Origin: Klebsiella phage vB_KpnM_KB57
Sequence record: NC_028659.1
Length of the DNA: 64,000 bases
Direction: 5' to 3' (one strand)
Position 1 is the stretch's first letter. Each line of letters starts with the position of its first letter. Below the pieces are notes generated by a model, which was given only the letters and a program-made list of their open reading frames with translations, did not search any database and was not told where the DNA came from. A program made the translations under genes and the position numbers. Shown piece by piece: positions 7,930 through 23,902 of the stretch.

Positions 7930-9940
7930 TGGACCGGATTGGGCGGCGTATCGCAAAGGTGGCAATGAAAACCCAAGAGCAGGTTTTGGAAGTAATCGCG
8001 GAGGCAAGTTGAATTATAGTAACAATCGAGTAGAAGAGACCCTGGAATCAGTGCTGTCTGGCACCCGCATCATGGCTGTTCCCGAAATGAGTCTCTCTCT
8101 TGAAGCAGCACAGTATTTTAAGATCCGTTCTGCGGTATCCCCGGCGGATGGTATCACCCCGGTAGCAACATACTTGCCCTATTATGACAAGTATGGGAAA
8201 CTGACGGGATTCAAGAAACGTGACTGGACGTTACAGAAGGAAAAGACAGGACACTTTTCAACTGTTGGTGCTGTGAAGGCATCATCTCAGTTCTTTGGAC
8301 AGCATGAAGCCTCTATGGGTGTTGGTCGTAAGCAGATTAATATCGTGGAAGGTGAAGGTGACGTATGCGCCGCATGGCAGGCAGCGTATGAGATGGTAAA
8401 GGCTATGTCTACCAGCCCAAAAGCCAGTAAAGGCGTTAAGGACTGGGCCGATAGCATCCTAAAAGGTATCCGTCATATCCAGAACGACGAAGACATTGGC
8501 GGTCTTCCGACACTACCCTATGTTGGATTAAACTGTGGTACTGCAAACGCTGTTGATACTTTCGCAAACAACGAGAAGTTCATTCGCAGTTATGAGAAGG
8601 TAGTCTTGGGCTTTGATAACGACGAAGCCACAGCATTAGAAAAAGAAAAGAAAATAAAGAAAGGTAAAGAAGCAACCGACGATGTCGCTAGCTTCCTGCT
8701 GTCAGAAAACATTTACGTTGTGCGATATCCTAACGAGCGTAATGACCCGGATGGCTTTAAAGACATTCGTGACATGTATGATGCAGGTAAGGTACGCGAG
8801 CTTTATGCAATGTTTACCAAAGCAGACGATCGCTATGTCCCTGATAAGCTTATCGGTCTTAAGGATATTACCATTGAGAATCTTCGCAAGAAGAAAAAAG
8901 ATGGTGTTCCATTACCGGGACTCCCTGGTCTCTATAACCTGACCCGTGGTCCTCGTACAGGTGAGCTTTGGACATTGACAGGTCCGTCTGGTGGTGGTAA
9001 GTCTACAATCTCTCGTAAGATTGAATACGCGATCATTGATTATCTTCGTGATATGTCAATTCCCCGCCTAGATGGCTGGACCGAGAGTGAGAAAGTAGCC
9101 ATCATCCGTCTGGAAGAGGATGAAGAAGAGTCTGTAAACAGCTTGTATGCTGAAGAGCTGAAGGTGGACCCTAAGGCATTTGTTGCTGACCCGGAGCAGT
9201 TCTTAACCGAAGAGCAACACCTTGAGATTCACCAACGCTGGATTCGGGAAGATAAGATTAAGATCTTTGATCACTTCGGTTCTATCCCGACAGACCAGCT
9301 TATTCAGAAACTTAAGCAGATGGTGTTCCTTGATGGTTGTAAATGGATCATCCTCGATCACCTATCAATGGTAATCTCTGGTCTTAAGTCCGACAACGAA
9401 CGTCGAGACCTTGATAACATCATGACCGAGTTGGCAGCTTTCTGTAAGAAGTACGATGTTTTCATCTTATCAATCAGCCACATGAAGCGTAAAGAACTTC
9501 AGCTTCCGAAAGATAAAGATGGGAATCTATTACCGTTCTGGTATCCGGTCCGTAAAGAAGACCTGCGCGGTTCTGCGGCCCTTGAACAACTCTCATGGGT
9601 GGTTCTGGGTGTTGAACCAGAAGAGCTTCCTGACCGCTCCCGTGGACGTGTACGTATCGTGGTGCTGAAGAACCGCCCACACAAAAAACTGGGTATCGCT
9701 GATACAATGGTTATGGATGACAACGGGCAGTTCTCCGATGCTTCCGGTTGGGAATGGGAAGATGGAATGTTCAAGCTTAATGGTGAAGTTATGCTTCGTC
9801 CTCAGAGCCTGATCCATCAACTCTCCCTGGAAACTCCGGTTGGAAAGGTAAATGTCCCGGCACCTGAGTATAAGCCAACCATCGATCTTGACAGGACCCC
9901 CGTTCCTACTCTTGGTCCTGACGATGATACGCCTTTTTAA
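7922..9940 (+). CDS. bifunctional DNA primase/helicase (T7 gp4-like)
   Basis: 672 aa; helicase Walker A GPSGGGKST, DnaB-like C-terminal half; N-terminal primase region; start overlaps HNH stop. Confidence 0.8.
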   Translation: MGNGPDWAAYRKGGNENPRAGFGSNRGGKLNYSNNRVEETLESVLSGTRIMAVPEMSLSLEAAQYFKIRSAVSPADGITPVATYLPYYDKYGKLTGFKKRDWTLQKEKTGHFSTVGAVKASSQFFGQHEASMGVGRKQINIVEGEGDVCAAWQAAYEMVKAMSTSPKASKGVKDWADSILKGIRHIQNDEDIGGLPTLPYVGLNCGTANAVDTFANNEKFIRSYEKVVLGFDNDEATALEKEKKIKKGKEATDDVASFLLSENIYVVRYPNERNDPDGFKDIRDMYDAGKVRELYAMFTKADDRYVPDKLIGLKDITIENLRKKKKDGVPLPGLPGLYNLTRGPRTGELWTLTGPSGGGKSTISRKIEYAIIDYLRDMSIPRLDGWTESEKVAIIRLEEDEEESVNSLYAEELKVDPKAFVADPEQFLTEEQHLEIHQRWIREDKIKIFDHFGSIPTDQLIQKLKQMVFLDGCKWIILDHLSMVISGLKSDNERRDLDNIMTELAAFCKKYDVFILSISHMKRKELQLPKDKDGNLLPFWYPVRKEDLRGSAALEQLSWVVLGVEPEELPDRSRGRVRIVVLKNRPHKKLGIADTMVMDDNGQFSDASGWEWEDGMFKLNGEVMLRPQSLIHQLSLETPVGKVNVPAPEYKPTIDLDRTPVPTLGPDDDTPF

Positions 9941-9946
9941 GGAGAA

Positions 9947-10417
9947 ATGATGATTCAGAAACGTGAGCGCGGAGGGGAGAGAAATCTCCTTCCAGTTACT
10001 GATTTAATTCAGCGACCAGAAGTAGAGTTCTATGAGATTTCCGGTGTCTTGCCAGAGAAGATCCTTGAATTTTCTGAGAAGCTTTCTAAGGTAAAAATCA
10101 CCACTACCGCCATAACTCTTGACGAATTTTATCCCTTAGATGTTTATCTCCCAGAGTGGGTAAACAAAGACGTTGGAGATTTTTTATCGGATAATTCCAT
10201 TGGTCCCCATCTTGACCATTGTATCTCAAGGGTAGCATCGGCTTTGGCGGCGACTATTGATGATCAGATTGGTGATGCAAAGGAGATTGTCTTCTCTCAT
10301 GCGGATACCATTTTGTATGCAAACACAGAAGGTAAAATCGGGTATCTGTGGTTAGTGATCAACAAAACTGAACGGTCACTTATGCTGCAATCAGAAATAT
10401 CTTTCAAAGTAGTCTAA
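9947..10417 (+). CDS. hypothetical protein
   Basis: 156-aa ORF with SD AAGGAGAAATG. Confidence 0.4.
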   Translation: MMIQKRERGGERNLLPVTDLIQRPEVEFYEISGVLPEKILEFSEKLSKVKITTTAITLDEFYPLDVYLPEWVNKDVGDFLSDNSIGPHLDHCISRVASALAATIDDQIGDAKEIVFSHADTILYANTEGKIGYLWLVINKTERSLMLQSEISFKVV

Positions 10418-10474
10418 ATACCAACTGAGAGGTGGGCGACGGTACAGTCTAGCCCACCTTGAATAGGAGGAATC

Positions 10475-13189
10475 ATTAAAGGTCTGTTTATACTGGATAA
10501 CGAGGCCGATGGCCTGTTAGACGAAGTAACGAAGTACCATTGTACTTTGCTGAAAGAATTTGGGGTCAACAACTGGAATCTGTTTTTAGACCCCGCACAC
10601 CCAGAATATGAAAGCGCTGTAGCCTTTGCCAGGAGCAAGAAGGATGTTAACCTTACAATTCGTTCATACGATGAGCTGGAAAGCTTCCTGAAGACTTGTA
10701 GAGCCATTGCGTGTCACAACCTGTTTGGTTATGACCTGCGTCTGTGGAAGAAGTTATCGGGCATTGAATATGATATGTTCAAAGACCCGAAGTGCATGGG
10801 GACGATTGGGGATACACAGGTAAATCTCTACGACACCCTCTCTATGAGCCGTGTGCTTTATCCTGACCGTCCATTACCTAACGGTTGCCCTGACTCTGTT
10901 CTTAACCCGGTAACCGGGAAACGAGACCGTGTAGGTCCTCATGGCCTGTTGGCCTGGGGCTACCGCGTAGCAAACAAGAAAGTTCAGATCGATGACTGGC
11001 GTAACCAACCCTTGTGGGAATACGTTAATCGTGTCTGGGAAGACGTTTTAATCAACGAGTTAGTATGGCAATCCCTGATCGATGAATCTACAGGTGCTCG
11101 CTGGCCTGATGACAAGCAGTTCATGTACAAAGATAAACCGGAAGGGATGCGGCAGATCAACTGGAAGAACGCGCTACGCCGCCGTATGTTGACTGATTAC
11201 CTGATGATTGAGCAAGAAATTCAGGGTGTTCCATTCAATAAGCATGAAGCTGAAAAGCTGAGAGACCGTATTGATGTAATGATGAAAGAGATTGAGGAAG
11301 AAGTAGAACCTCAACTCCCGCTCAAAGAGATGACGAAGTCTCAACAGCCAAAATTCCCTGCTAGTCCTTTTGATGGTGCAGGAAGAATTTCCCATCACGG
11401 GTGGAATTGGTTAGAATACAAGCTGGGATATCCAGTTAATCGTGAAGCGCTGGAATTCAAAGGTCCACCGAAGACGGCGTTTAAAGGTAACGGTGATGTA
11501 AGTGCAGCAGGGGAAAGATACTGTATCCAGAATGGTGTTGAAGACCCGGCAGCGATGCCATACTTCATTAGAAGCCAGATAAAGAAAGAGAATACCCTTG
11601 TCCCATTGCCACCAGACCTAATGGAAAAGGCAATTGCCGATCTTCGTGCTGGAAAGATGCCAGACCTGATGGTTCCGATGAAGATCTCGAACCAGGACGA
11701 CATCAAGAAGTACCTGATCCGCGATGCGGGATGGAAACCAACGCTCTGGCGTGTTAAAGATGTGACGAAAGACCAGTTCAAAAAGACCCGTGATGATGCG
11801 GAGATTGATGGTCTGGTGCGTAAGTACATCGAAGAACTTGGAGAGTCCGAGTATAAATCTCTGATTCTTGAGCACTTAAATAATAGTGACGCAAAGTTCA
11901 ATATCTCGGAAAACAAGTTCGACCATCGTCATGGTTCTGATCGTGTTTACGAGGAGATCTTCAAGAAGTTCAGACGCAAAGCTCGTCAACTGCCGACTTC
12001 ACCACAGTTGAAGGATAACTTTGGCAAGCTGTGTCCTAACCTTGAAGTTATCGATGTTCACTTGGCTAAACAGATTGTTAAGTGGCTGTCATTACGTAAC
12101 CGTCGTTCTGTTCTCGACCCTATTGACGAGGATAAAAACGATACAGGGCTGTTGAATCATCCTCGCCTGGCGATTGATGGAAAACTTCCAGCTCGTTTCT
12201 CTGGTATCACTAACACCGGGCGTTGTAAGCACACCATTTGTGCAAACATGCCTAAACCAGACCCTAAGGTGTTACTGGGTAAAGAGATGCGCGGCCTCTG
12301 GGGTGTTACCGATGAATATTACCAGGTAGGTATCGATGGTTCTAACCTCGAAGGTATGATCGCGGCGTGGGGTGCATATCAGTTCGATGGTGGTGAATAC
12401 CTCCGTATCATGGAAAGTGGAGATGCCCACGCACGAAACGCCGAGGCATACACCAAAGCTTCTGGTACTCTGGTAACGCGTAACGGTGGTAAAGGGGTAA
12501 CCTACGGCATCATGTATGGTGCTCAGGCAGCTAAGATTGCAGCAATGCTTCACATTTCCCTTGACAAGGCACAGGCGGTAATCGATGCTTTCTGGGATAG
12601 TAACTTTGGTTTGAAAGGTCGTAAGGAATGGCTTGAAAACTTCTGGGAAGCAACGGGTAAACGTTATATCCCTGGTCTCGATGGTCGTAAGATTTGGACC
12701 CGTTCTAAGCACTCTCTTCTGAATGCTTTCCAGCAAAACGGTGGTGCATCTCTATTCGATCTGGTGGGTATCCTTCTTCATTGGGAACTGATCAAACGTG
12801 GCTGGTATGATGATGACGTTCGTCGCCTGATTTACTACCATGATGAATACCAGCTCCAGGTTCCTAAGAAATACTTGAAGAAGTGGGAGTTTGACACCCT
12901 GGAAGAGGCAACAGCTTTCGTAAAAGAATGGGAAGCAAAAGGCCGCGTATTTGACGGGCATGAGTGGAGAAAGGCCGTCAAAGATGAAAATGGTGATAAA
13001 GTCAAGGATGCGGAAGGTAATACAGTCTACGAGGGTATTTTTGGAGAGGATGGTAAAATTCACATCCAGTATTGCCCTGTAGGTGAAATGGTCGTAAGAT
13101 GTGTAGAGAAGGCAGCTCGTATCATGGGCAGTCCTGTACATATCACAGGGGCATATCTGACTGGTCGTAACTGGGCAGAGTGTCACTAA
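10475..13189 (+). CDS. family A DNA polymerase with 3'-5' exonuclease (T7 gp5-like); true start upstream of first ATG/TTG, probably non-canonical ATT at 10475
   Basis: Exo I motif ILDNEADGL encoded at 10487-10513 upstream of track start 10547; pol motif A GIDGSNLEGM, motif B RNGGKGVTYGIMYG, motif C YYHDEYQ; perfect SD AGGAGG at 10465-10470. Confidence 0.85.
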   Translation: MKGLFILDNEADGLLDEVTKYHCTLLKEFGVNNWNLFLDPAHPEYESAVAFARSKKDVNLTIRSYDELESFLKTCRAIACHNLFGYDLRLWKKLSGIEYDMFKDPKCMGTIGDTQVNLYDTLSMSRVLYPDRPLPNGCPDSVLNPVTGKRDRVGPHGLLAWGYRVANKKVQIDDWRNQPLWEYVNRVWEDVLINELVWQSLIDESTGARWPDDKQFMYKDKPEGMRQINWKNALRRRMLTDYLMIEQEIQGVPFNKHEAEKLRDRIDVMMKEIEEEVEPQLPLKEMTKSQQPKFPASPFDGAGRISHHGWNWLEYKLGYPVNREALEFKGPPKTAFKGNGDVSAAGERYCIQNGVEDPAAMPYFIRSQIKKENTLVPLPPDLMEKAIADLRAGKMPDLMVPMKISNQDDIKKYLIRDAGWKPTLWRVKDVTKDQFKKTRDDAEIDGLVRKYIEELGESEYKSLILEHLNNSDAKFNISENKFDHRHGSDRVYEEIFKKFRRKARQLPTSPQLKDNFGKLCPNLEVIDVHLAKQIVKWLSLRNRRSVLDPIDEDKNDTGLLNHPRLAIDGKLPARFSGITNTGRCKHTICANMPKPDPKVLLGKEMRGLWGVTDEYYQVGIDGSNLEGMIAAWGAYQFDGGEYLRIMESGDAHARNAEAYTKASGTLVTRNGGKGVTYGIMYGAQAAKIAAMLHISLDKAQAVIDAFWDSNFGLKGRKEWLENFWEATGKRYIPGLDGRKIWTRSKHSLLNAFQQNGGASLFDLVGILLHWELIKRGWYDDDVRRLIYYHDEYQLQVPKKYLKKWEFDTLEEATAFVKEWEAKGRVFDGHEWRKAVKDENGDKVKDAEGNTVYEGIFGEDGKIHIQYCPVGEMVVRCVEKAARIMGSPVHITGAYLTGRNWAECH

Positions 13190-13194
13190 TTACA

Positions 13195-13214
13195 GGGGCT
13201 TCGGCCCCTTTTTT
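13195..13214 (+). terminator. rho-independent terminator after DNA polymerase
   Basis: GGGGCTTCGGCCCC + TTTTTT. Confidence 0.7.
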
Positions 13215-13227
13215 CATAGGAGAGACC

Positions 13228-13550: not shown

Positions 13551-15581
13551 ATGACCGCAAAATATGAAACCGTACCTTACGCTGACTTCGTAAAAGCTCT
13601 GAAAGCTCAGTTCGCTGTCATGCAAGCGCTGGGTGCGCTTTACACGGTCGATGTACCGAAAGATGAACTGTACGATCTGTACCTCGACTCTTTCCCGGAA
13701 GGCACCAATCTGATGTATAAAGAGCGCCGTGAATATGACTGTAACTGCTGCAAGAGCTACATCCGTACTCTGGGCCGAGTAGTCGCGATTCACAACGGCA
13801 AGCTGGTCTCTATTTGGGACGTTAAAGTTGGTGGTTACTACCAAGTTGTTGCCGATGCGATGAAAGCGCGTGTTGAAAGCGCCGAGATCCGCGATCGCTT
13901 CTTCCACTTCGAAGGCCGCGTTGGTACTGAGAGCAACGTAGCTCTGCTGGAAAATGGGAAAACCAAAACCTGGACCCACTTCCATCAGGCCCTGCCTCGC
14001 GAACTGGTTAAACGTGGTGAAGATATCCCTTCTGCCCTGGGTGAGTACCGTGACAACGCAACTGTGCTGGCACGTTCTCTGAAAGATATCGATATGGACT
14101 CTGCCGAAACGGTAATGGACCTGATCAACCAAGGCTCTCTGTACCGTGGTGATGAGAAAAAGCACATTGTTGCTGCCTTTATTAAGGCGAAACGTGCATA
14201 CGACAAAACGCCGGAAGATCAGCGAATGAACTTCTGCTGGAAACAAAGTGAAACGCTGGGTAAACTGGGCCGCTTCCGTAATGATGTCATCGGTACACTG
14301 ATGAGCGATCTGGCAGAAGGTATTGATCTTGAAGCCGCAGTGAAGTCCTTTGAAGACAAAGTCTCAGGGACCAACTACAAGCGTACTACAGCTCTGGTAA
14401 CTCCGGGCATGATCAAGGCAGCACAAGAGAAGGTTGAAGCCCTCGGCTTGACTGAATCTCTGGCACGTCGCTTTGCGGTGACCTCTGACCTGACGATCAA
14501 CAACGTGTTGTTTGCTGACCGTTCTGCAAAGGCCCAGATGAACGTATTCGAGCAACTGGCAGCGTCAACCAAAAACGCGCCGAAGTCACTGTCGAAAGTA
14601 GAAGAGATCAGCATTGAGGATTTCATCAACAACGTTCTGCCGAAAGCGGACACTATCGAAGCGCTGGTTGAAGGTCGTCTGACACCGAACCTGATGAGCC
14701 TGGTTGCCCCGGCAAACGCAGGTGCTCCTAACCTGTTCAAATGGGATAACGGCTTCTCCTGGTCGTATAATGGCGAAGTAACTGACTCCATCAAGGAGCG
14801 TGTGAAAGCCGCTGGCGGTAGCGTGACTGGTGACCTGCGTGTTTCGTTGTCCTGGTACAACAGTGATGACCTCGACCTGCACGTATTCGAGCCTGGTGGT
14901 GGTCAAATTTACTTCGGTAACAAACGTGGCCGCTCAACGGGTACGCTGGATGTGGATATGAATGCCTATGGCAAGTCAGACGCACACCATCCGGTTGAGA
15001 ACGTTACGTGGGAAAATGAGCGTAATATCACGGAAGGTGTTTACAAGGTTGTTGTTAACAACTATAATAAGCGCATGACTGATCGCGTTGGCTTCGAAGT
15101 ACAGATGGAATACAAAGGCCAAGTGTTCAACTTTGCATACCCGCAAGCTTTGGGTAATAGCAAGAGCCAGACCGTTGTAACCTTTAAGTATTCTCGTGCG
15201 AAAGGTGTTGAAATTGTAGACAGCATCGGGCATACTAAGCAATCTAAAGAAGTATGGGGCGTCTCTACCGAGACCTTCCAGAAAGTTTCTCTGGTGCTGA
15301 ATTCTCCTAACTTCTGGGATGGTCAGACCAAAGGTAACAAACACTACTTCTTTATGCTGGAAGGTTGCATTAACCCTGACGATACTCGTGGCTTCTACAA
15401 TGAGTATCTGCGTGACGAGCTGCATGAGCATCGTAAAGTGTTCGAAGTGTTGGGTTCCAAGCTCAAAGCTGAACACTCCACTGATCAACTGAGCGGCCTG
15501 GGCTTCTCGTCTACCCAGCGTAACGAGTTGGTTGTGAAGGTTACTGGTTCTTTCAACCGCACCCTGAAGATTAAATTCTGA
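13551..15581 (+). CDS. abundant early protein of unknown function (676 aa), host-optimised codon usage
   Basis: consensus sigma70 promoter upstream, SD CAGGAGAACGAAATG, strong CTG/CGT/GGT/AAA/GAA/TTC/TAC codon bias like the capsid and SSB genes; no recognisable motif. Confidence 0.6.
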   Translation: MTAKYETVPYADFVKALKAQFAVMQALGALYTVDVPKDELYDLYLDSFPEGTNLMYKERREYDCNCCKSYIRTLGRVVAIHNGKLVSIWDVKVGGYYQVVADAMKARVESAEIRDRFFHFEGRVGTESNVALLENGKTKTWTHFHQALPRELVKRGEDIPSALGEYRDNATVLARSLKDIDMDSAETVMDLINQGSLYRGDEKKHIVAAFIKAKRAYDKTPEDQRMNFCWKQSETLGKLGRFRNDVIGTLMSDLAEGIDLEAAVKSFEDKVSGTNYKRTTALVTPGMIKAAQEKVEALGLTESLARRFAVTSDLTINNVLFADRSAKAQMNVFEQLAASTKNAPKSLSKVEEISIEDFINNVLPKADTIEALVEGRLTPNLMSLVAPANAGAPNLFKWDNGFSWSYNGEVTDSIKERVKAAGGSVTGDLRVSLSWYNSDDLDLHVFEPGGGQIYFGNKRGRSTGTLDVDMNAYGKSDAHHPVENVTWENERNITEGVYKVVVNNYNKRMTDRVGFEVQMEYKGQVFNFAYPQALGNSKSQTVVTFKYSRAKGVEIVDSIGHTKQSKEVWGVSTETFQKVSLVLNSPNFWDGQTKGNKHYFFMLEGCINPDDTRGFYNEYLRDELHEHRKVFEVLGSKLKAEHSTDQLSGLGFSSTQRNELVVKVTGSFNRTLKIKF

Positions 15582-16704: not shown

Positions 16705-16872
16705 ATGTTAGAGGCAATCAATTATTTCTTTTTAGTTCTGGCAGCAGTGGCCTGTGTTTCTTGTGCCTTCGGCGCTGTCTTTTCAAAAGATGAAACACAC
16801 CGCACGGTGTACGTAGGTTGTGCAGTCATCAACGCTGCTTTTACGGTGCATCTCTGGAGTATCGCCCTATGA
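16705..16872 (+). CDS. small membrane protein (55 aa; below ORF-track cutoff)
   Basis: ATG after GGAGGG; hydrophobic MLEAINYFFLVLAAVACVSC...; stop overlaps next start. Confidence 0.35.
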   Translation: MLEAINYFFLVLAAVACVSCAFGAVFSKDETHRTVYVGCAVINAAFTVHLWSIAL

Positions 16873-17063
16873 AGCTTTCACATTTTATTTATGCAGTGTT
16901 AGGCCTTATGGCCCTGACCATGCTGACAACGTTGGGGCTTTCATTTACAGCAGACCATGAGCAACAAACAAAAGAAATTTTGGGAGCAGGTTTCGGTATG
17001 TTTATGCTTGAATTCTTCCTGCTTCTTTTGGGCGGTGTGATTGTCGATACTTCCGGCTGGTAA
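16869..17063 (+). CDS. small membrane protein
   Basis: ATGA overlap; two hydrophobic segments. Confidence 0.4.
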   Translation: MKLSHFIYAVLGLMALTMLTTLGLSFTADHEQQTKEILGAGFGMFMLEFFLLLLGGVIVDTSGW

Positions 17064-17073
17064 GGAGAAATAA

Positions 17074-17280
17074 ATGCGTGGATTCATGCCTTGGGTGCGT
17101 CCGTTGGTTATTGTGATTGTTGTTGCAGTTGTCGCCTACATATCGCTTGACATCGCAGATAACGTGACCCATAATTGCAAGCCTAACGGTGAGCAACGCC
17201 TTGCTAACTCGGTTGATGGTGTTATCGTTGAGAACAAACTGATCTGCGACGGTGGTCGAGTGAAGTGGTCTCGCTACTAA
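17074..17280 (+). CDS. small membrane protein
   Basis: SD TAAGGAGAAATAAATG; N-terminal TM VRPLVIVIVVAVVAYISL. Confidence 0.4.
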   Translation: MRGFMPWVRPLVIVIVVAVVAYISLDIADNVTHNCKPNGEQRLANSVDGVIVENKLICDGGRVKWSRY

Positions 17281-17313
17281 ATTCTGACTAAATAATCTCA
17301 AGAGGAGATTCAA

Positions 17314-17562
17314 ATGAAAAAGATTATCCTAGCCGCCCTGCTCGCGCTTTCTTGCTCTGCACAAGCAACAGAGTTTTATCCTGAAGCAAACCCGAATGAT
17401 ATTAACGAGTCCGTTGATAGTGAACTGGCAAAGTCCCTACTGAAACGCGACACCCTTGAATTGAAAATTAAAATCGCAGAGCTTGAAGTGGAACTTGCCA
17501 AAATGAAGAAGACTCAAGTTCTATACAGCATTGCCCTTGAATCAATGGAGAAAAACAAATGA
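17314..17562 (+). CDS. small secreted/periplasmic coiled-coil protein
   Basis: signal peptide MKKIILAALLALSCSAQA; SD AAGAGGAGATTCAAATG. Confidence 0.45.
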   Translation: MKKIILAALLALSCSAQATEFYPEANPNDINESVDSELAKSLLKRDTLELKIKIAELEVELAKMKKTQVLYSIALESMEKNK

Positions 17563-18647
17563 CGATTACTCGCGGCCTTATCTTCGGAAAGTTTGCACCG
17601 CTGACCAACGGACATATTGAATTCATTCGCCAGGCGGCTTCTCAGGTTAGTGCTCTGTATCTGTTCCTGTCCTATGACCAGAAATTCGTTGACGCACAAC
17701 CAGAGTGGATTCGTCCTAAGCTGGGACTTGCTGATCGTTATCGTGACCTGCTGGATGTCATTGCCGACGAGGGACTTGACAACGTGAAGGTAGACTACGT
17801 TGATGAGTCGAATATCCCAGGATACCCTGAAGGCAGTGCTGCCTATGCAAAACTGATCCGTGAAAAGCAACCGTTCGTTAAGTACGATTTTGCTTTCTCT
17901 TCTGAGCCGGAGTATGAGTCTTACTTCAGTGAGTTCTTCCCTGAAGCGAAGCATGTAGTTATCGACGCAGAACGTAAAGCTGTTCCTATCTCAGCCACGA
18001 TGATCCGTAATGATCCGTACAACAACTTCTACAACCTAGCGTGGCCTGCACGTAAGCGCTTCATGAAGAAGGTTGCCATCATTGGTGTTGAGAGTACGGG
18101 CAAGACAACCTTGACACAACATCTGGCGCATACCTTCGGTGCTGGTTGGATTCCTGAGATCGGGAGGCTTATCTGTGAGCGTGAATACCACTCCAGTGAG
18201 TTAGCAATGTCTCGTGGAGACTATCTTCGTATCGCAATGGAGCATCGCCTGAAGGAAATGGAGTTAGCTGGTTGGGGTGGTTGTGGGGTTATGTTCTCTG
18301 ACACCACAAACCTGATCACTCATTTCTCTGGTATTTGTGCAGACAAGATCGACTACTCCGATCTTCTGTTCCGCACACTGAGCCGTGAAGAGAGCTACAA
18401 CTTCTACGACCTATTCCTGTTCCTAACACCAGAGGTCCCGTGGGTTGCTGATCCTCTTCGCTTGCAGGATACGCCAGAAAAGCGTAAAGAAACACATTCT
18501 TTGCTTGACACAATGATCAGGACATCTTACGATACAAGCAAGGTGGTAGTTATCTCAGGAAGTGATTACAAAGAACGTACTCAGAAAGCCGAAGAAGCTG
18601 TCCGTAAATTGCTGAATATCAAAGGAGAACAGAATGGGGTTTCCTAA
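17559..18647 (+). CDS. nadR: NadR-type bifunctional NMN adenylyltransferase / ribosylnicotinamide kinase
   Basis: N-terminal nucleotidyltransferase motif GKFAPLTNGH (HxGH), C-terminal kinase Walker A GVESTGKTTL; 362 aa. Confidence 0.8.
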   Translation: MTITRGLIFGKFAPLTNGHIEFIRQAASQVSALYLFLSYDQKFVDAQPEWIRPKLGLADRYRDLLDVIADEGLDNVKVDYVDESNIPGYPEGSAAYAKLIREKQPFVKYDFAFSSEPEYESYFSEFFPEAKHVVIDAERKAVPISATMIRNDPYNNFYNLAWPARKRFMKKVAIIGVESTGKTTLTQHLAHTFGAGWIPEIGRLICEREYHSSELAMSRGDYLRIAMEHRLKEMELAGWGGCGVMFSDTTNLITHFSGICADKIDYSDLLFRTLSREESYNFYDLFLFLTPEVPWVADPLRLQDTPEKRKETHSLLDTMIRTSYDTSKVVVISGSDYKERTQKAEEAVRKLLNIKGEQNGVS

Positions 18648-18897
18648 ACTTGAGATTGGTGATTTAGTATTGGTTCCCCAGTGGAACGGTAAGGAATCTG
18701 TAGAAATTTGTCAGTACCGTGGAGCAACAGGAAACCTGATGTTGATGGTATATCATCCTGATGCAGTTTTGAAATCTCAAAGTGAGCGTTTCATTCGGGA
18801 CACCGACAGTATGCCGTACAGTGTTAGCATCGTTCGTAAGAGCGATTCAGAGGCATGGGCTAGACTCATGGTAAAAATATCCACACAAAAAGGATAA
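18634..18897 (+). CDS. hypothetical protein
   Basis: 87-aa ORF overlapping nadR end. Confidence 0.4.
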   Translation: MGFPKLEIGDLVLVPQWNGKESVEICQYRGATGNLMLMVYHPDAVLKSQSERFIRDTDSMPYSVSIVRKSDSEAWARLMVKISTQKG

Positions 18898-18901
18898 CAA
18901 G

Positions 18902-19267
18902 ATGAACGTAACTAATTCAAGCATGAAGCAGGCTTTTGGTGTTCTGAAGGTTATTTTGGAAAAGGCACCTGAATTAGCGGAAGGTCTTCAGGCTTATGCC
19001 AACTGTCGTGAGCAAGGGTTCTCCATCATGAAGTTGGACTGCTCCGGTGGAGAAGATAATTGTCGCCAAGTGTCATTCTCAGAATGTCGTAACAGTGATC
19101 AGATCACTGTGTACTGGGGCGGGACTCGTGACTTCAATTTCCAAACTAACATCCCAACTGATGATACTTATTTCAATCGCCATAAATTCTTCGGCTATGA
19201 GGAGTACGAAGAGGTGGCTGACTGGATTATTGCATACTTGAAGGGTGATAACGATGGATCAAACTAA
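18902..19267 (+). CDS. hypothetical protein
   Basis: 121-aa ORF. Confidence 0.4.
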   Translation: MNVTNSSMKQAFGVLKVILEKAPELAEGLQAYANCREQGFSIMKLDCSGGEDNCRQVSFSECRNSDQITVYWGGTRDFNFQTNIPTDDTYFNRHKFFGYEEYEEVADWIIAYLKGDNDGSN

Positions 19268-19664
19268 GCTGGAAATTCTCCACTTCTTAGAGAAGTCTTT
19301 GGAGGAAAAGCAGGGATGGACGTACCACAAAGAGGTAGCTGATAAATTTGGCGAGCCTGCCACTACAGAGGCCCTAGCTTCTCTTATCGGGAATGGTAAA
19401 GTGATGGATTGCGGCTGCGGGTGTTCCGGTATGATGATCACCCCTGCGGGTCTTGAGGATATTCGCCCACCAAAACGTATCATGGTGTGGAAAACAGAAT
19501 CCGGGAAGGTTGTCAGGCTGACCCATATGTCAGATGACCACTTGCGGAACGCCATCATTTGGTTGCTGACAGACTCCAGTCTTACTGATGAGTACGAGGG
19601 TTATGGCATCACACAATGGTTGGTGGCTATGTCTCGCGAGCTGCACAGCCGTGTGACTGCCTAA
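19254..19664 (+). CDS. hypothetical protein
   Basis: ATG 19254; 136 aa. Confidence 0.4.
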   Translation: MDQTKLEILHFLEKSLEEKQGWTYHKEVADKFGEPATTEALASLIGNGKVMDCGCGCSGMMITPAGLEDIRPPKRIMVWKTESGKVVRLTHMSDDHLRNAIIWLLTDSSLTDEYEGYGITQWLVAMSRELHSRVTA

Positions 19665-20005
19665 TGGCTAAGGTTCTCAACTTTTACCACATCGGTAAAG
19701 TGATCCCTGAGAATGCTGAATACATGGGGCGAGCCATGCCCCATCTTGGTTTGAAACAATCTAAGTTTGCTAATAAGTTCAAATTGAATAAAGATGGTTC
19801 TAACCGAGCCGAAGTTATTGAGCGCTATCGCGTGTGGTTGTGGCAACAGATCCGTTCTGGGAAAATTACTATTCAAGATCTTCTTGACTTGGATGGTAAA
19901 GACCTTGTATGCTTCTGTAAACAGCCGAACAAAGAGGTGGCATGTCATTGTGATGTGATACTTGCGGCAATCGAATGGGCAAAACAGAGGAGTCAAAATG
20001 TCTAA
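19664..20005 (+). CDS. hypothetical Cys-containing protein (CFCKQP...ACHCDVI)
   Basis: TAATG coupling with previous gene. Confidence 0.4.
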   Translation: MAKVLNFYHIGKVIPENAEYMGRAMPHLGLKQSKFANKFKLNKDGSNRAEVIERYRVWLWQQIRSGKITIQDLLDLDGKDLVCFCKQPNKEVACHCDVILAAIEWAKQRSQNV

Positions 20006-20147
20006 AGAATTTATGGACTGGTTTGATAAAAACGCACCAGTACATCTTTATCCAGATGCAGAGGAGCGTGAAATCCTCCAGTTAATGTGTTGGTTGGCAT
20101 GGAGAGATGGGATCAGGTCTGTCTTACCAGTTGTAATGGAGGGTTAA
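19998..20147 (+). CDS. hypothetical small protein
   Basis: SD CAGAGGAGTCAAAATG. Confidence 0.3.
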   Translation: MSKEFMDWFDKNAPVHLYPDAEEREILQLMCWLAWRDGIRSVLPVVMEG

Positions 20148-20149
20148 AA

Positions 20150-20386
20150 ATGGCTATTCATGCAAAAAGTAATGGTCTACTGATCGGAGGTAAGATCATC
20201 GAGGAGACACTGACAGGCTGGGTTTTCCAGGCAATGGATAACAAAGGTACTAATTTTGTGTTCAAGTCAGATGAGAAGAACCAAGTTTTTGACGGACCGA
20301 ATGCTGTTGACGAAGCAATGGCTTGGCAAACTAAAGTTCGGTCAGAAATGAAAAATAAAAAGAAAAAGGGGCGCAAAAATGGCTAA
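20150..20386 (+). CDS. hypothetical small basic-tailed protein
   Basis: SD GGAGGGTTAAAAATG. Confidence 0.35.
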   Translation: MAIHAKSNGLLIGGKIIEETLTGWVFQAMDNKGTNFVFKSDEKNQVFDGPNAVDEAMAWQTKVRSEMKNKKKKGRKNG

Positions 20387-20636
20387 AGATACATGGGAAG
20401 TATTTCATGATGACGATGAAATAAAGGTCATTGTCTCAGGCTCTCTTGAGGTAGGTTCCGGGTGGCGATCTTACAGCGACGTGTGTTCAGAGATTAATAG
20501 TATTGAAGATGCAAAACTTATCGCAGCAGCACCGGAATTGCTTGACGCGGTTCTGGATCTGAAGTATAAGTTATACGGTAACGGCGCAGCGAATCCTAAA
20601 ATCGAAGCGCTTCTTAAACGATTAACAGGAGAATAA
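20379..20636 (+). CDS. hypothetical protein
   Basis: 85-aa ORF. Confidence 0.4.
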   Translation: MAKDTWEVFHDDDEIKVIVSGSLEVGSGWRSYSDVCSEINSIEDAKLIAAAPELLDAVLDLKYKLYGNGAANPKIEALLKRLTGE

Positions 20637-20638
20637 CC

Positions 20639-21361
20639 ATGAATACAAATCTGTACATTAAGACAGCGTGGACCGACTTTTATGGCTGGTCAAAACTTGA
20701 ATACCTTTGGCTCCTCATCTGCTCGGCATCGATCGCCATTGTCTCCTTGACTATGGGCGGTGGGTTAGTAGAGTTCATCTCTTCTGTCACCGGGATCATC
20801 GGGGCTATCCTAGTGGCAAAAGGTAAGCTCTCCAGTTATTACTGGGGCTTTGTGGCAACGGTGCTGTATGCATATATCTCCTTCACGTACAAGTTGTACG
20901 GTGAGACGATTATGTACACCCTGTTGTTCACCCCCATGCAGGTCATTGGTGGGGTAATCTGGGCGCGTAAGTTAACCGTCTCTGCGGATGGTGAACGTGC
21001 GGATGTCATCAAGAAGTATCTGACCACAAAACAGCGCTGGATTGTTGGTATCGGGACATTGGTGACGATCGGATTATACGCCGAGTTCGTTAGCCTGCTG
21101 AAAGGGAGTATGCCGGGTCTAGATTCTGCTACAGCAATCCTGTCGGTTCTGGCAACCTACCTGATGATGGTTCGTTATGCAGAACAATGGTATGTCTGGA
21201 TTATTGTTAACGTGGTTGCTGTGGCTCTGTGGATTCAGACAGCAATGCATCATGAAACACAAGGATGGGCAGTCCTTGCAATGTGGGTGACTTTCCTGTT
21301 AAACTCTGTGTACGGTGCTTACAAATGGCGTAAAACAGAAAAGGAAACTACACATGCGTGA
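20639..21361 (+). CDS. pnuC: PnuC-type nicotinamide riboside transporter
   Basis: 240 aa polytopic membrane protein with PnuC-like segments (WGF...YAYISF, WYVWIIVNVVAVALWIQ). Confidence 0.75.
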   Translation: MNTNLYIKTAWTDFYGWSKLEYLWLLICSASIAIVSLTMGGGLVEFISSVTGIIGAILVAKGKLSSYYWGFVATVLYAYISFTYKLYGETIMYTLLFTPMQVIGGVIWARKLTVSADGERADVIKKYLTTKQRWIVGIGTLVTIGLYAEFVSLLKGSMPGLDSATAILSVLATYLMMVRYAEQWYVWIIVNVVAVALWIQTAMHHETQGWAVLAMWVTFLLNSVYGAYKWRKTEKETTHA

Positions 21362-21572
21362 TTTAATCATCCCCGCAGCCATCAGTGTCTCAGTGTTCTT
21401 TATTGTACTTGGAATTTCTATCGCACTTGGGTATTATCTGGCTATCAGTGCTGGTCAGGTGTTCGGAACGCTGGGTTTCGGTGAGTACACTGAAACATCT
21501 GTTGCAGTCGGTAGTGCTTCTGGATTACTTCTTGGTATGGCCTCTTTTGGCATAAGTTCAGGTGCAGTATGA
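21354..21572 (+). CDS. small membrane protein
   Basis: ATG 21354 overlapping pnuC end; hydrophobic. Confidence 0.35.
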   Translation: MRDLIIPAAISVSVFFIVLGISIALGYYLAISAGQVFGTLGFGEYTETSVAVGSASGLLLGMASFGISSGAV

Positions 21573-21751
21573 AAACTCGGGTAATTATGTTCTTGGCAGT
21601 ATTTTTTGGAGTCATTATGTGCTCCATAACAGTAGCTCTGTGCGGCGGAGCTAAATTCGGAACTATGGAATTTGGGTGGATCTTAGGTACAGGGATGACG
21701 GTAGGGGCAGTTGGTGGATTATTGGCAGCAGGGTTGCCAGACTATAAGTAA
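21569..21751 (+). CDS. small membrane protein
   Basis: 60 aa, two hydrophobic helices. Confidence 0.35.
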   Translation: MKTRVIMFLAVFFGVIMCSITVALCGGAKFGTMEFGWILGTGMTVGAVGGLLAAGLPDYK

Positions 21752-21759
21752 GGTGAAAA

Positions 21760-22329
21760 GTGAAAAGAACAAAGCATATCAATAAGAATGCTTTCCGCAA
21801 GGTGGGGCGTTATGCCCTGCCATTCGCGGTGGCAATCACAGTTGCAGGTTGTGAGCAAGCAGACATTGACATGAAGATGTACAAAAATGTTGATGAGTGT
21901 ATTGCAGATACTCACAAACCGGATCAGTGTCGGGCAGCAAGACAAGAAGCAGAAAAGGTCGCAAATGAAACTGCACCACGCTATGCTACTTATTCTGACT
22001 GCTACGCGGAGTTCGGTGACCAGTGCAGACACAACCCAAGCAGTTCAGATGGTGGCTCTTCGTGGATGCCGTTGATGATGGGGTACATGATGGGTAACAG
22101 CATGAATTCCGGCTATCATTCAGCACCATTGTATCAGAATCGCTCAGGTCAGTATATGGACAATAAATTCCGTAACTACAATACACGTCCTGGTCAAACG
22201 TTCAAGGTGACAAGCTCTGCGGCAAAGCCAACAGTACAGTCTCCCCGTACAACAGTTTCTCGCAGCACCACATCTTCTCGTGGTGGTTTTGGAAGCTCTG
22301 TGAGCAGTCGTTCATCTTTTGGAGGGTAG
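21760..22329 (+). CDS. lipoprotein homologous to E. coli YgiB (DUF1190)
   Basis: MKRTKHINKNAFRK..., lipobox VAGC, conserved NADDC/ECxxA...APKYAT..DCxAEFG, SWMPLMxGYMMG, C-terminal RGGFG...S.S..GG, all shared with YgiB as recalled. Confidence 0.6.
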   Translation: MKRTKHINKNAFRKVGRYALPFAVAITVAGCEQADIDMKMYKNVDECIADTHKPDQCRAARQEAEKVANETAPRYATYSDCYAEFGDQCRHNPSSSDGGSSWMPLMMGYMMGNSMNSGYHSAPLYQNRSGQYMDNKFRNYNTRPGQTFKVTSSAAKPTVQSPRTTVSRSTTSSRGGFGSSVSSRSSFGG

Positions 22330-22332
22330 TCG

Positions 22333-22701
22333 ATGATTGGATTCTGGGAATGGTTTACAATGAATCACAATTGGGTATCTAGCCTGATCCCGCTTGCTAT
22401 GTTTTCCTTCATAGGGTGGTCATTGTCGGGAGGGCTTACTTGGAAGGGAAAAGTGGCCTCCTATGTGTTTTCAGCCGTAATGTTTGGGGTAATGTTCTGG
22501 GCAGTGACTTACTTAGGTGGTTATGGAATGTACCAGCGCCATTATACTACTTGCGCAAAGCCAGAGGCTGTGGCATCATTCTATGTGTTTGATGCAAAGA
22601 AAGAGCGCTGTTATAAACCTGTTGTTGGATTTGCACCTGTTGATGATAATCAGGTAAAGACTCTGACACCGAAACAAATGGAGACTGGAGAATGGCTTTA
22701 A
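22333..22701 (+). CDS. membrane protein
   Basis: 122 aa, 2-3 TM segments. Confidence 0.4.
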   Translation: MIGFWEWFTMNHNWVSSLIPLAMFSFIGWSLSGGLTWKGKVASYVFSAVMFGVMFWAVTYLGGYGMYQRHYTTCAKPEAVASFYVFDAKKERCYKPVVGFAPVDDNQVKTLTPKQMETGEWL

Positions 22702-22976
22702 CTCGTGAAGAACGCACAGGTGCCAAGTTTGTCGAGATGTATGAGGCAAGCTTAGGGGACAATCCTAATCTGGAAGAACAGTTAGTTCTCTCATATTTCA
22801 AGAAAAATGTAGATGATCTGCCCGTGGACCAGTCTGATCCAACAAGTTTCCACAAAGCATTCCGGCAGGTTGACATCTGCCGTAAAGGTTATCAAGACAT
22901 GGTGATTTGGTCTCTGATGTCTGGTGGGGAATTAAATACAATCTGGAAAGTTTTGGAGGAATTTTATGCTAATTGA
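22692..22976 (+). CDS. hypothetical protein
   Basis: 94-aa ORF. Confidence 0.35.
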   Translation: MALTREERTGAKFVEMYEASLGDNPNLEEQLVLSYFKKNVDDLPVDQSDPTSFHKAFRQVDICRKGYQDMVIWSLMSGGELNTIWKVLEEFYAN

Positions 22977-23277
22977 TGAACTTGGTGTTAGTGGCCTTGT
23001 CCCAGATGCTTGGGCAGAGGCATATGGTAAGCCACAAGCTGATCCTCATTCTGTTTTCGCAGAGCTGCTTGGTGTAACACGACAACAAGCGAAGGTAATC
23101 AATTATGAGTATATGTACTCTGAAGAGGCCAAGCATGTTCGGGCGATCAAACTGTGTCATCTGGCGGGAAAAGAAACTCGGTATGTTTACCGGAAGTTTG
23201 CTAACCTTTTAGCAGCTAACGGGGGTCTTGTTCCTCCACTGAGAGAGGTTCTTGAAGAGGTAGATCGGGATGAATAA
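22966..23277 (+). CDS. hypothetical protein
   Basis: 103-aa ORF. Confidence 0.35.
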   Translation: MLIDELGVSGLVPDAWAEAYGKPQADPHSVFAELLGVTRQQAKVINYEYMYSEEAKHVRAIKLCHLAGKETRYVYRKFANLLAANGGLVPPLREVLEEVDRDE

Positions 23278-23674
23278 AATCCGAAAATTTTTCAAATGGT
23301 TATTGGGGTTATTCAGTACAACAACGGTCGTATCTATAGGGAAGGGAAACAGCACTTTTGTTAGCCAAACAACCAAGGTGACCACAATATCTTCTGAAGC
23401 GCTTAATGAGACGCTCAACGAGGCCCTTCGTCAAGCAAGACAAAACAATGAGCGGAGATTGAAAATGTCCCCACCAACGCCACCTTCACCTCCTAAAAGG
23501 CGTGTGGTCGTGGAGGATGGCGGTTATCGCCGGAGAAATGATGATGCGGCGATCATCAATACAACCACGATTAGTGATACGTATACTCATCATACGCCAA
23601 GTCACTCGTCAAGTAGTCATGACTCGTATTCCTCCTGTGATTCGAGTTCATCATTTTCAGGCAGTTGTGATTAA
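23270..23674 (+). CDS. hypothetical protein with N-terminal TM and Ser/Pro-rich tail
   Basis: 134-aa ORF. Confidence 0.35.
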   Translation: MNKIRKFFKWLLGLFSTTTVVSIGKGNSTFVSQTTKVTTISSEALNETLNEALRQARQNNERRLKMSPPTPPSPPKRRVVVEDGGYRRRNDDAAIINTTTISDTYTHHTPSHSSSSHDSYSSCDSSSSFSGSCD

Positions 23675-23683
23675 GGAGATAAA

Positions 23684-23902
23684 ATGAAAATTGGTTTCTT
23701 AGGTCTTTTGGCGTTGGTATTTATCACGCTTAAACTGTGCGGCGTGATCGCCTGGTCGTGGTGGCTTGTTTTACTACCGCTCTACTTCGGTGTTGCCGTT
23801 CTTCTTTTCTTCTTCCTGATGGCGATTATCGGGTGGCTGGGACTGGCAAGTGTAGGCCGTGTAGCTGAAATGATGTCAAATTCAAAAAAGAAAAGAAAGT
23901 AA
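23684..23902 (+). CDS. small membrane protein
   Basis: SD TAAGGAGATAAAATG; two TM. Confidence 0.35.
   Translation: MKIGFLGLLALVFITLKLCGVIAWSWWLVLLPLYFGVAVLLFFFLMAIIGWLGLASVGRVAEMMSNSKKKRK

Follow-up and report, generated by a model that had tools for sequence, protein, structure and literature searches.

A divergent and interrupted gene pair of predicted NARP3 type (NadR/PnuC) in Klebsiella phage vB_KpnM_KB57

Does Klebsiella phage vB_KpnM_KB57 encode its own route from nicotinamide riboside (NR) to NAD+, and if so, is this route a new one? The question is raised by two genes in the 64,000-nucleotide stretch of NC_028659.1 that we analyzed (here called the window). The original prediction, made from the letters of the window, placed them at 17559–18647 and 20639–21361, and both ORFs are there, on the plus strand. 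It read the first as an enzyme of the NadR type, the second as a PnuC-like transporter, and proposed that they constitute an undescribed third solution to NAD+ depletion by host defenses. We conclude that the pair is a divergent, interrupted and putative member of the known NARP3 system and not a discovery. That it serves as a NARP3-type NAD+ reconstitution module in this Klebsiella Mydovirus (Vequintavirinae) has, in our estimate, a probability of about 0.8.

Predicted NadR-type enzyme and PnuC-type transporter

The first ORF (17559–18647, plus strand) encodes 362 amino acids, matches phrog_3462 (E=3.6e-139) and has the NadR architecture that had been claimed for it. Pfam CTP_transf_like matched residues 8–151 with 25.7 bits (cutoff, 21), delimiting an NMN adenylyltransferase (NMNAT) domain at 17580–18011 (plus strand). 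It is followed by a P-loop ribosylnicotinamide kinase (RNK) domain at 18069–18578 (plus strand; residues 171–340; Pfam AAA_28, E=2.3e-21). The whole NadR motif set, (H/T)xGH, ISxTxxR and the RNK Walker A, was found: GKFAPLTNGH occupies residues 10–19 (nt 17586–17615), ISATMIR, the second NMNAT motif, residues 144–150 (nt 17988–18008), and GVESTGKTTL, the Walker A, residues 176–185 (nt 18084–18113).

In line with the original prediction, the N-terminal helix-turn-helix (HTH) is missing. Residues 4–354 aligned with positions 65–408 of the 411 in NCBIfam NadR model NF005988, and profile positions 1–64 were unmatched. An in-frame stop 6 codons 5' of the ATG leaves no room for an upstream HTH in the same frame. 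TIGR01526 was matched as well (E=1e-51); the NCBIfam equivalog cutoffs were missed with both models (176 bits versus 341.15 for TIGR01526; 163.8 bits versus 201 for NF005988). The best PDB match was Bas30_86 (9X6F/9X6H; E=2.3e-58), with E. coli NadR behind it (E=7e-30). Together, profiles and motifs confirm the assignment of a predicted NadR-type NMNAT/RNK without HTH.

The second ORF (20639–21361, plus strand; 240 amino acids) matched PF04973 NMN_transporter (E=6e-39; 134.2 bits; cutoff, 27.3), phrog_1880 (E=4e-80) and, above its cutoff of 42.45, the PnuC equivalog TIGR01528 (115.6 bits). It falls outside the enterobacterial PnuC subfamily NF011926 (55 bits versus a cutoff of 335). The EQWxxWxxxN motif is kept, and a crude hydropathy scan revealed several hydrophobic segments. 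The PDB entry 4QTN, the Neisseria mucosa PnuC, aligned with 35% identity (E=1.3e-41). Among the NR residues listed for it by Yan et al. (Q124, Q196, N214 and Y242), the Q and N are kept as Q101 and N191, and Q196 and Y242 correspond to T173 and F219. These matches confirm the ORF as encoding a predicted PnuC-type NR transporter; the profile matches of both proteins are far above chance level.

Conserved residues and the predicted route to NAD+

The claim of novelty did not stand. A phage operon of NadR and PnuC was proposed as an additional NAD+ reconstitution route by Osterman et al. in 2024, and the route was validated and named NARP3 by Yan et al. (Sci Adv, August 2026; PMC13464706). The latter study used Bas30_86 and Bas30_87, the NadR-like enzyme and PnuC-like transporter of the T5-like phage TrudiRoth (PDB 9X6H/9X6F). 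Jointly, but not singly, they restored NAD+ and rescued two phages, T7 and lambda, from the Sir2-HerA and DSR1 defenses in a manner dependent on NR (EC50, 3.6 to 5.6 μM); this evidence comes from plasmid-expressed proteins and, as the authors themselves point out, from outside the native phage (PMC13464706).

The KB57 proteins are about 36 to 37% identical to this characterized pair. For residue numbering of Bas30_86 we used Salmonella phage rutana gp104, because it is 100% identical to the crystallized fragment. Of 14 residues mapped from the study of Yan et al., either mutated there or located in a pocket, 12 are identical in the KB57 enzyme, and the two others are conservatively replaced (D115 by E and R167 by K). 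Viewed by site, K10, F11, S37, E80, P84, G89, F110, S112, V139 and I141 of site 2 are kept and D115 is changed, while K163, K168, E230 and D275 of site 1 are kept and R167 is changed. Furthermore, W90, said to stabilize NMN, is Ser in KB57. The transporter retains two of the three NR-contact residues of Bas30_87 (Q94 and N180, corresponding to Q101 and N191); the third, N45, is replaced by Gly both here and in N. mucosa PnuC.

On the basis of homology (about 36% identity), the following route can be proposed. The PnuC-like membrane protein would import NR during infection, the kinase domain of the NadR-like enzyme would phosphorylate NR to NMN with ATP, and its NMNAT domain would adenylate NMN to NAD+. 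The NAD+ pool would thereby be refilled when host NADase defenses (Sir2-HerA, DSR, Thoeris and similar systems) deplete it, or alternatively when phage replication draws on it. Profiles, the structure-sequence match, conserved residues and the experiments on the homologous pair support this reading of the original prediction, and we consider it very likely that the predicted biochemistry holds. The experiments of Yan et al. also make the suggested countering of NAD+-depleting defenses plausible, and counter-defense is probably, if less surely, the role for which the pair is selected in KB57. Relatives of KB57 have NARP1 as well, at another place in their genomes, which could make the pair redundant for defense evasion.

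Alternatively, the pair could be a general auxiliary metabolic module that serves the NAD+ needs of the phage whatever the host immunity, with NAD+ feeding a phage Sir2-family enzyme and the nucleotide and redox metabolism of a large-genome infection. Indeed, PHROGs assigns both genes to the category "moron, auxiliary metabolic gene and host takeover," a SIR2-family protein (PF02146, E=1e-23) is encoded by PQ569688.1, a near-identical relative, and large and jumbo phages whose metabolic repertoires are extensive commonly have NadR-like and PnuC-like genes. However, the homologous pair neutralizes Sir2-HerA and DSR1 specifically via NAD+ restoration (PMC13464706), and the same lineage has NARP1, a pathway that reuses what NADase effectors directly produce, which points to selection by NAD+-depleting immunity. 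We regard a purely auxiliary module as rather unlikely; the auxiliary and counter-defense roles are compatible and not mutually exclusive.

Linkage of the pair and the ORFs between its genes

A compact two-gene cassette is absent from KB57: the NadR and PnuC genes are separated by 1,991 nt (approximately 2 kb), which, exactly as predicted, hold seven ORFs (18634–20636, plus strand). These are, all on the plus strand, a Phage_tudor ORF (18634–18897), an ORF at 18902–19267, the ORF o3 (19254–19664; phrog_22435), a DUF4326 ORF similar to T4 NrdA.1 (19664–20005), and three further ORFs (19998–20147, 20150–20386 and 20379–20636). Each starts with ATG, has a Shine-Dalgarno-like sequence and matches a PHROG of unknown function. 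Between 17314 and 21361, all junctions between genes lie on one strand and measure −14 to +4 nt, and all genes at 16705–23902 lie on the plus strand with gaps of at most 33 nt. Promoter-like sites were not in excess (18 versus 17.0 ± 4.8 expected from shuffling). Judged solely by this packing, the NadR and PnuC genes are probably cotranscribed.

Close GenBank relatives (Mydovirus, Vequintavirinae) are already annotated with NMNAT and PnuC. Among phage GenBank records, we counted 722 with NadR-like and 817 with PnuC-like genes, with near-identical numbers by genus (NadR-like/PnuC-like: Salmonella, 176/177; Klebsiella, 46/45; Escherichia, 38/38; Bacillus, 24/24; Lactobacillus, 18/18; Erwinia, 14/14). 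With about 720 to 820 phage records, such pairs are far more widespread than in the survey of Yan et al., who gave 124 operon hits (PMC13464706). Phages with these genes include ICP1, phages of Bacillus, Lactobacillus and Enterococcus, and jumbo phages. In IMG/VR, PnuC was on the same strand at 27 of 29 NadR loci, and the two loci lacking it are on contigs that end right after NadR. In all Vequintavirinae-like loci, NadR precedes PnuC on one strand despite changing filler, as expected under selection on the pair.

The original prediction had suggested that the seven ORFs may belong to the module. Most of them do not: the gap contains 1 to 8 ORFs among relatives and differs even inside a genus, so the block genes are mostly variable passengers. 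Their presence differs from one Mydovirus genome to another, and where the two genes of the pair adjoin, as in T5-like phages, ICP1 and jumbo phages, the block is missing. Only DUF4326 and one small ORF stay near NadR across relatives. DUF4326 is a possible accessory, since it alone among the block ORFs has been connected, in a published prediction, with ADP-ribose metabolism. The C-terminal half of o3 is kept just 3' of NadR in Mydovirus, Seunavirus and Henunavirus; o3 had no match in Pfam or PDB. It is conceivable, though quite doubtful, that Mydovirus and Seunavirus run NARP1 and an interrupted NARP3 together as an extended NAD+/ADPr-handling module, with DUF4326 (possibly NADAR-like) and o3 as accessories that process ADP-ribose-derived products.

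The distance between the genes and the seven unrelated genes in it could also mean that NadR and PnuC are functionally uncoupled in KB57, with the transporter carrying another nucleoside or vitamin, and the lack of conservation at one of three Bas30_87 contacts (N45) and two of four 4QTN residues (Q196 and Y242) fits this. However, Bas30_87 is itself substituted at the latter two positions (M162 and F207), yet it binds and imports NR; the KB57 transporter passes the PnuC equivalog cutoff, and the order of the genes is kept in the related loci. Uncoupling is therefore very improbable. Less probable still is that the NadR-like protein acts mainly as the NMNAT partner of a phage Nampt-like enzyme, in a NARP2-like conversion of nicotinamide to NMN and NAD+ with the kinase domain and PnuC secondary: relatives do encode a NAPRTase-family protein beside a Prs-like protein, and phage NadR can co-occur with NadV (Iyer et al. 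2022), but the proteins of the relatives are classed as NARP1, which needs no NMNAT (Osterman et al. 2024), the kinase-site residues are kept in KB57 (with R167 as K), and PnuC is linked with NadR in every informative locus.

Comparison with known systems

As the NARP3 pathway was hypothesized in 2024 and validated in 2026, the discovery value of the KB57 pair is small. Mydovirus phages of Klebsiella are, however, culturable and relevant to phage therapy, and they offer a good system for a test of NARP3 in a native phage.

Like NARP3, KB57 has an NMNAT-RNK enzyme lacking the HTH and a PnuC-type transporter in the same gene order and on the same strand, and it keeps the validated catalytic and NR-contact residues except D115 (E), R167 (K) and N45 (G). 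It differs from Bas30, a T5-like siphovirus, in being a Vequintavirinae myovirus of about 145 kb, in the gap of seven ORFs (versus 1 nt separating the two genes as annotated in rutana, a Bas30-type phage), and in the modest identity with the Ser and Gly replacements of W90 and of N45 in the transporter. With bacterial NadR (E. coli 8X7F, Haemophilus influenzae 1LW7 and Lactococcus 6GYE) the enzyme shares the folds and motifs of both NMNAT and RNK, but not the N-terminal HTH regulator domain or a score above the NCBIfam cutoffs. The transporter has the fold signature of bacterial PnuC (4QTN). Yan et al. note that nadR and pnuC are not linked in E. coli (PMC13464706).

The pair also resembles NARP1 (Adps/Namat) and NARP2 (Nampt/Nmnat; NadV/NatV of KVP40), which are likewise phage-encoded means of rebuilding NAD+ against NAD+-depleting immunity. 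In no phage did Osterman et al. (2024) find NARP1 alongside NARP2; they assigned proteins of Mydo, KpS8, BIS47 and GAP31 to "Adps-associated" Namat and Adps, i.e., to NARP1, which yields NAD+ directly from ADPR-PP and nicotinamide. The lineage appears to have both NARP1 and a NARP3-type pair and could show how phage NAD+ rescue routes are layered. The routes differ in their substrates, which are ADPR and nicotinamide for NARP1, nicotinamide and PRPP for NARP2, and, as predicted for KB57, imported NR.

Identity of the NadR-like enzyme and the PnuC-like transporter

The source of the window is a large virulent myovirus belonging to Mydovirus (Vequintavirinae). Over the first 25 kb, the window shows approximately 97.5% identity to the Klebsiella phages KPP-1 and KpS8, and over the 5 kb around the NadR/PnuC locus, 96.7% identity to Proteus phage Mydo. 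Both predicted plus-strand ORFs, encoding a NadR-like enzyme of 362 aa (17559-18647) and a PnuC-like transporter of 240 aa (20639-21361), were found together with the seven small ORFs between them. The enzyme contains the two motifs on which the original prediction was based, GKFAPLTNGH (residues 10-19) and GVESTGKTTL (residues 176-185), as well as a second NMNAT signature, ISATMIR (residues 144-150). Both genes are already annotated in GenBank records of this phage group, e.g., as gp26 and gp32 of PVP-SE1.

Pfam analysis revealed a cytidylyltransferase-like domain (residues 8-151) as well as a P-loop kinase domain of the AAA_28 family (residues 171-340), and phrog_3462 (nicotinamide-nucleotide adenylyltransferase) matched the enzyme with an E value of 3.6e-139. 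The NCBIfam NadR model was aligned over profile positions 65 to 408 of 411, although the scores remained below the curated cutoffs (176 versus 341 bits and 164 versus 201 bits). The only part missing from this alignment was the N-terminal HTH, in agreement with the predicted absence of the regulatory wHTH domain. Furthermore, an in-frame stop is located 6 codons upstream of the ATG, which rules out a longer NadR-like protein.

The closest solved structure was Bas30_86, the enzyme of the T5-like phage TrudiRoth (E = 2.3e-58), with E. coli NadR far behind (E = 7e-30). For residue numbering, gp104 of Salmonella phage rutana, which is 100% identical to the crystallized Bas30_86 fragment, was used. 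The Bas30_86 residues K10, F11, S37, E80, P84, Y86, G89, Y93, F110, S112, V139, I141, K163, K168, E230, and D275 are identical in the window enzyme, and two are conservatively replaced (D115 by E and R167 by K). W90 (S in the window) and D164 (R) are not conserved, and neither position is among the mutated ones.

The transporter passed the thresholds of Pfam NMN_transporter and the TIGR01528 PnuC equivalog, matched phrog_1880, and was 35% identical to the N. mucosa PnuC structure 4QTN (E = 1.3e-41). In the reference used for Bas30_87, rutana gp105, N45, Q94, and N180 are at the published positions. Q94 and N180 are kept in the window transporter as Q101 and N191, while N45 corresponds to Gly, as it does in 4QTN. 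The signature EQWxxWxxxN was invariant in all eight transporter sequences compared.

The window enzyme is 96% identical to NadR of Salmonella phage PVP-SE1 and 84% identical to that of GAP31, although both of these phages belong to Seunavirus. This pattern points to a probable mosaic exchange of the nadR-like gene among genera.

Relation to the published NAD+ reconstitution pathways

Phage NadR, which combines a HIGH nucleotidyltransferase with a P-loop kinase, was listed by Iyer et al. (2022; PMC9503650) with the phage enzymes of NAD+ synthesis countering NADase effectors. Osterman et al. (2024) considered an NadR-PnuC operon, shown for BASEL phages, as possibly "yet another pathway" beyond NARP1 (Adps/Namat) and NARP2 (Nampt/Nmnat). 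Yan et al. (Sci Adv, 12 Aug 2026; PMC13464706) validated this pathway and named it NARP3. According to this work, Bas30_87 imports nicotinamide riboside (NR), and NAD+ restoration and rescue of T7 and lambda from Sir2-HerA and DSR1 require both Bas30 genes, a single gene being insufficient. The rescue was NR dependent, with an EC50 of 3.6 to 5.6 μM, and the crystal structures 9X6H and 9X6F were reported (PMC13464706).

Together, the profile matches, the top structure match to Bas30_86, and the retention of validated residues support the NadR/PnuC interpretation in substance. We estimate a probability of roughly 85% that the window pair would import NR and convert it via NMN to NAD+. Counter-defense is a reasonably likely selected role of the pair in this phage, held with less confidence than its biochemistry. 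The biology behind the predicted "distinct third solution" thus stands, but its novelty does not, since the pathway had already been proposed by Osterman et al. and validated by Yan et al.

The lineage also harbors other NAD+-related genes, located outside the window in the near-identical relative PQ569688.1 (L010 denotes the part of it used here). Adjacent genes for an NAPRTase-family protein (559 aa) and a Prs-like protein (266 aa) are on the minus strand at 88160-90701 (L010:20160-22701), and a SIR2-family protein gene adjoining that of an ATP-dependent DNA ligase is on the plus strand at 96238-97014 (L010:28238-29014). Osterman et al. list Mydo, KpS8, BIS47, and GAP31 as carriers of Adps and "Adps-associated" Namat, i.e., NARP1. 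Based on this listing, the lineage probably carries NARP1 alongside the NARP3-type pair. Phages combining NARP1 with NARP2 were not encountered by Osterman et al., and we found no discussion of the co-occurrence of NARP1 with NadR/PnuC in Osterman et al. or Yan et al. NARP1 and the NadR/PnuC pair would complement each other: in NARP1, the ADPR and nicotinamide released by cleavage are recycled, and the NadR/PnuC route would supply new pyridine from outside the cell. A role of NadR in a NARP2-like route was rejected, the Nampt-like protein of neighboring genomes being classed as Adps-associated Namat.

Linkage of the two genes and the intervening ORFs

NadR-like genes were detected in 722 and PnuC-like genes in 817 GenBank phage records, with nearly equal genus counts. 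This spread is far broader than the 124 operon matches, mostly from Salmonella and Escherichia, of the NARP3 paper (PMC13464706). Carriers include Vibrio phage ICP1, Bacillus, Lactobacillus, Enterococcus, and Caulobacter phages, and jumbo phages. In IMG/VR, 27 of 29 NadR-like loci had PnuC on the same strand, and the remaining two were on contigs ending directly after NadR. The spacing varies with lineage: the two genes adjoin or overlap each other in T5-like phages, ICP1, and most jumbo-phage loci, and they are separated by 0.4 to 0.75 kb in Henunavirus and Stephanstirmvirinae, and separated by 1.1 to 2.3 kb in Seunavirus and Mydovirus.

It was proposed that the seven ORFs in between (18634-20636) may belong to the module. 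For most of them this was not upheld, because the content of the block varies and the block is absent where the pair is adjacent. Within Mydovirus alone, its size ranges from 5 to 8 ORFs, and the Phage_tudor ORF and the fifth and seventh small ORFs are present in some genomes and missing in others. Two elements, the C-terminal half of the third ORF, o3 (19254-19664), and the DUF4326 ORF (19664-20005), were near NadR in 12 of 12 Vequintavirinae-like and Stephanstirmvirinae-like IMG/VR loci. Their positions differ: in Henunavirus, DUF4326 is located 5' of NadR, and in phi1_175008, it lies 2.4 kb downstream of PnuC. Moreover, DUF4326, a T4 NrdA.1-like family, is spread over approximately 500 phage records, N4 and PB1-like phages among them, and any association with NadR/PnuC is therefore loose; shared synteny may explain the nearness. 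A deep homology search with DUF4326 retrieved stand-alone DUF4326 proteins only, and the published fusions with Macro, with SLOG, and with NADAR were not reproduced at this sensitivity.

o3 (phrog_22435) is limited to approximately 65 phage records, almost exclusively of this phage group, and in Mydovirus, Seunavirus, and Henunavirus, its C-terminal ~60 residues are kept just 3' of NadR. Pfam and PDB searches with o3 gave no match, and PDB sequence searches with DUF4326 and its profile gave no meaningful one. In relaxed Pfam scans of the small and flanking ORFs, the only match was DUF1190 at 21760-22329. None of the nine proteins of the locus was matched in a PADLOC scan.

All gene junctions between 17314 and 21361 have gaps of -14 to +4 nt, and the region 16705-23902 is encoded on a single strand throughout, with gaps of at most 33 nt. 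This packing leaves no space for internal regulatory regions around NadR/PnuC and suggests that the gene string is co-transcribed. A promoter and terminator scan inside the block revealed nothing beyond chance level.

Genomic surroundings and comparison with known systems

The DUF1190 lipoprotein-like ORF, located 3' of PnuC, is 98% identical to its counterpart in Cronobacter phage GAP31, whereas the flanking genes show only 47 to 84% identity, and it is missing in PQ569688.1. These data suggest a recent exchange between genera. Upstream of the NadR block, a strongly conserved phage protein of 676 aa (13551-15581; phrog_1735, E = 1.8e-298) had no match in Pfam or NCBIfam. It follows the DNA polymerase region (~8365-13220), in which, according to the annotation of the close relative L001 (coordinates within ~1 nt), the polymerase gene is in three pieces, with HNH endonuclease genes lying between them. 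This split gene resembles the HNH-associated introns of Pectobacterium phage CB7 of the same subfamily.

When compared to the Bas30 pair of NARP3, the window pair shares most of the validated enzyme residues, but its overall identity is only about 36 to 37% and its two genes are interrupted by other ORFs. In summary, the window pair is a predicted NARP3-family member, divergent and interrupted.
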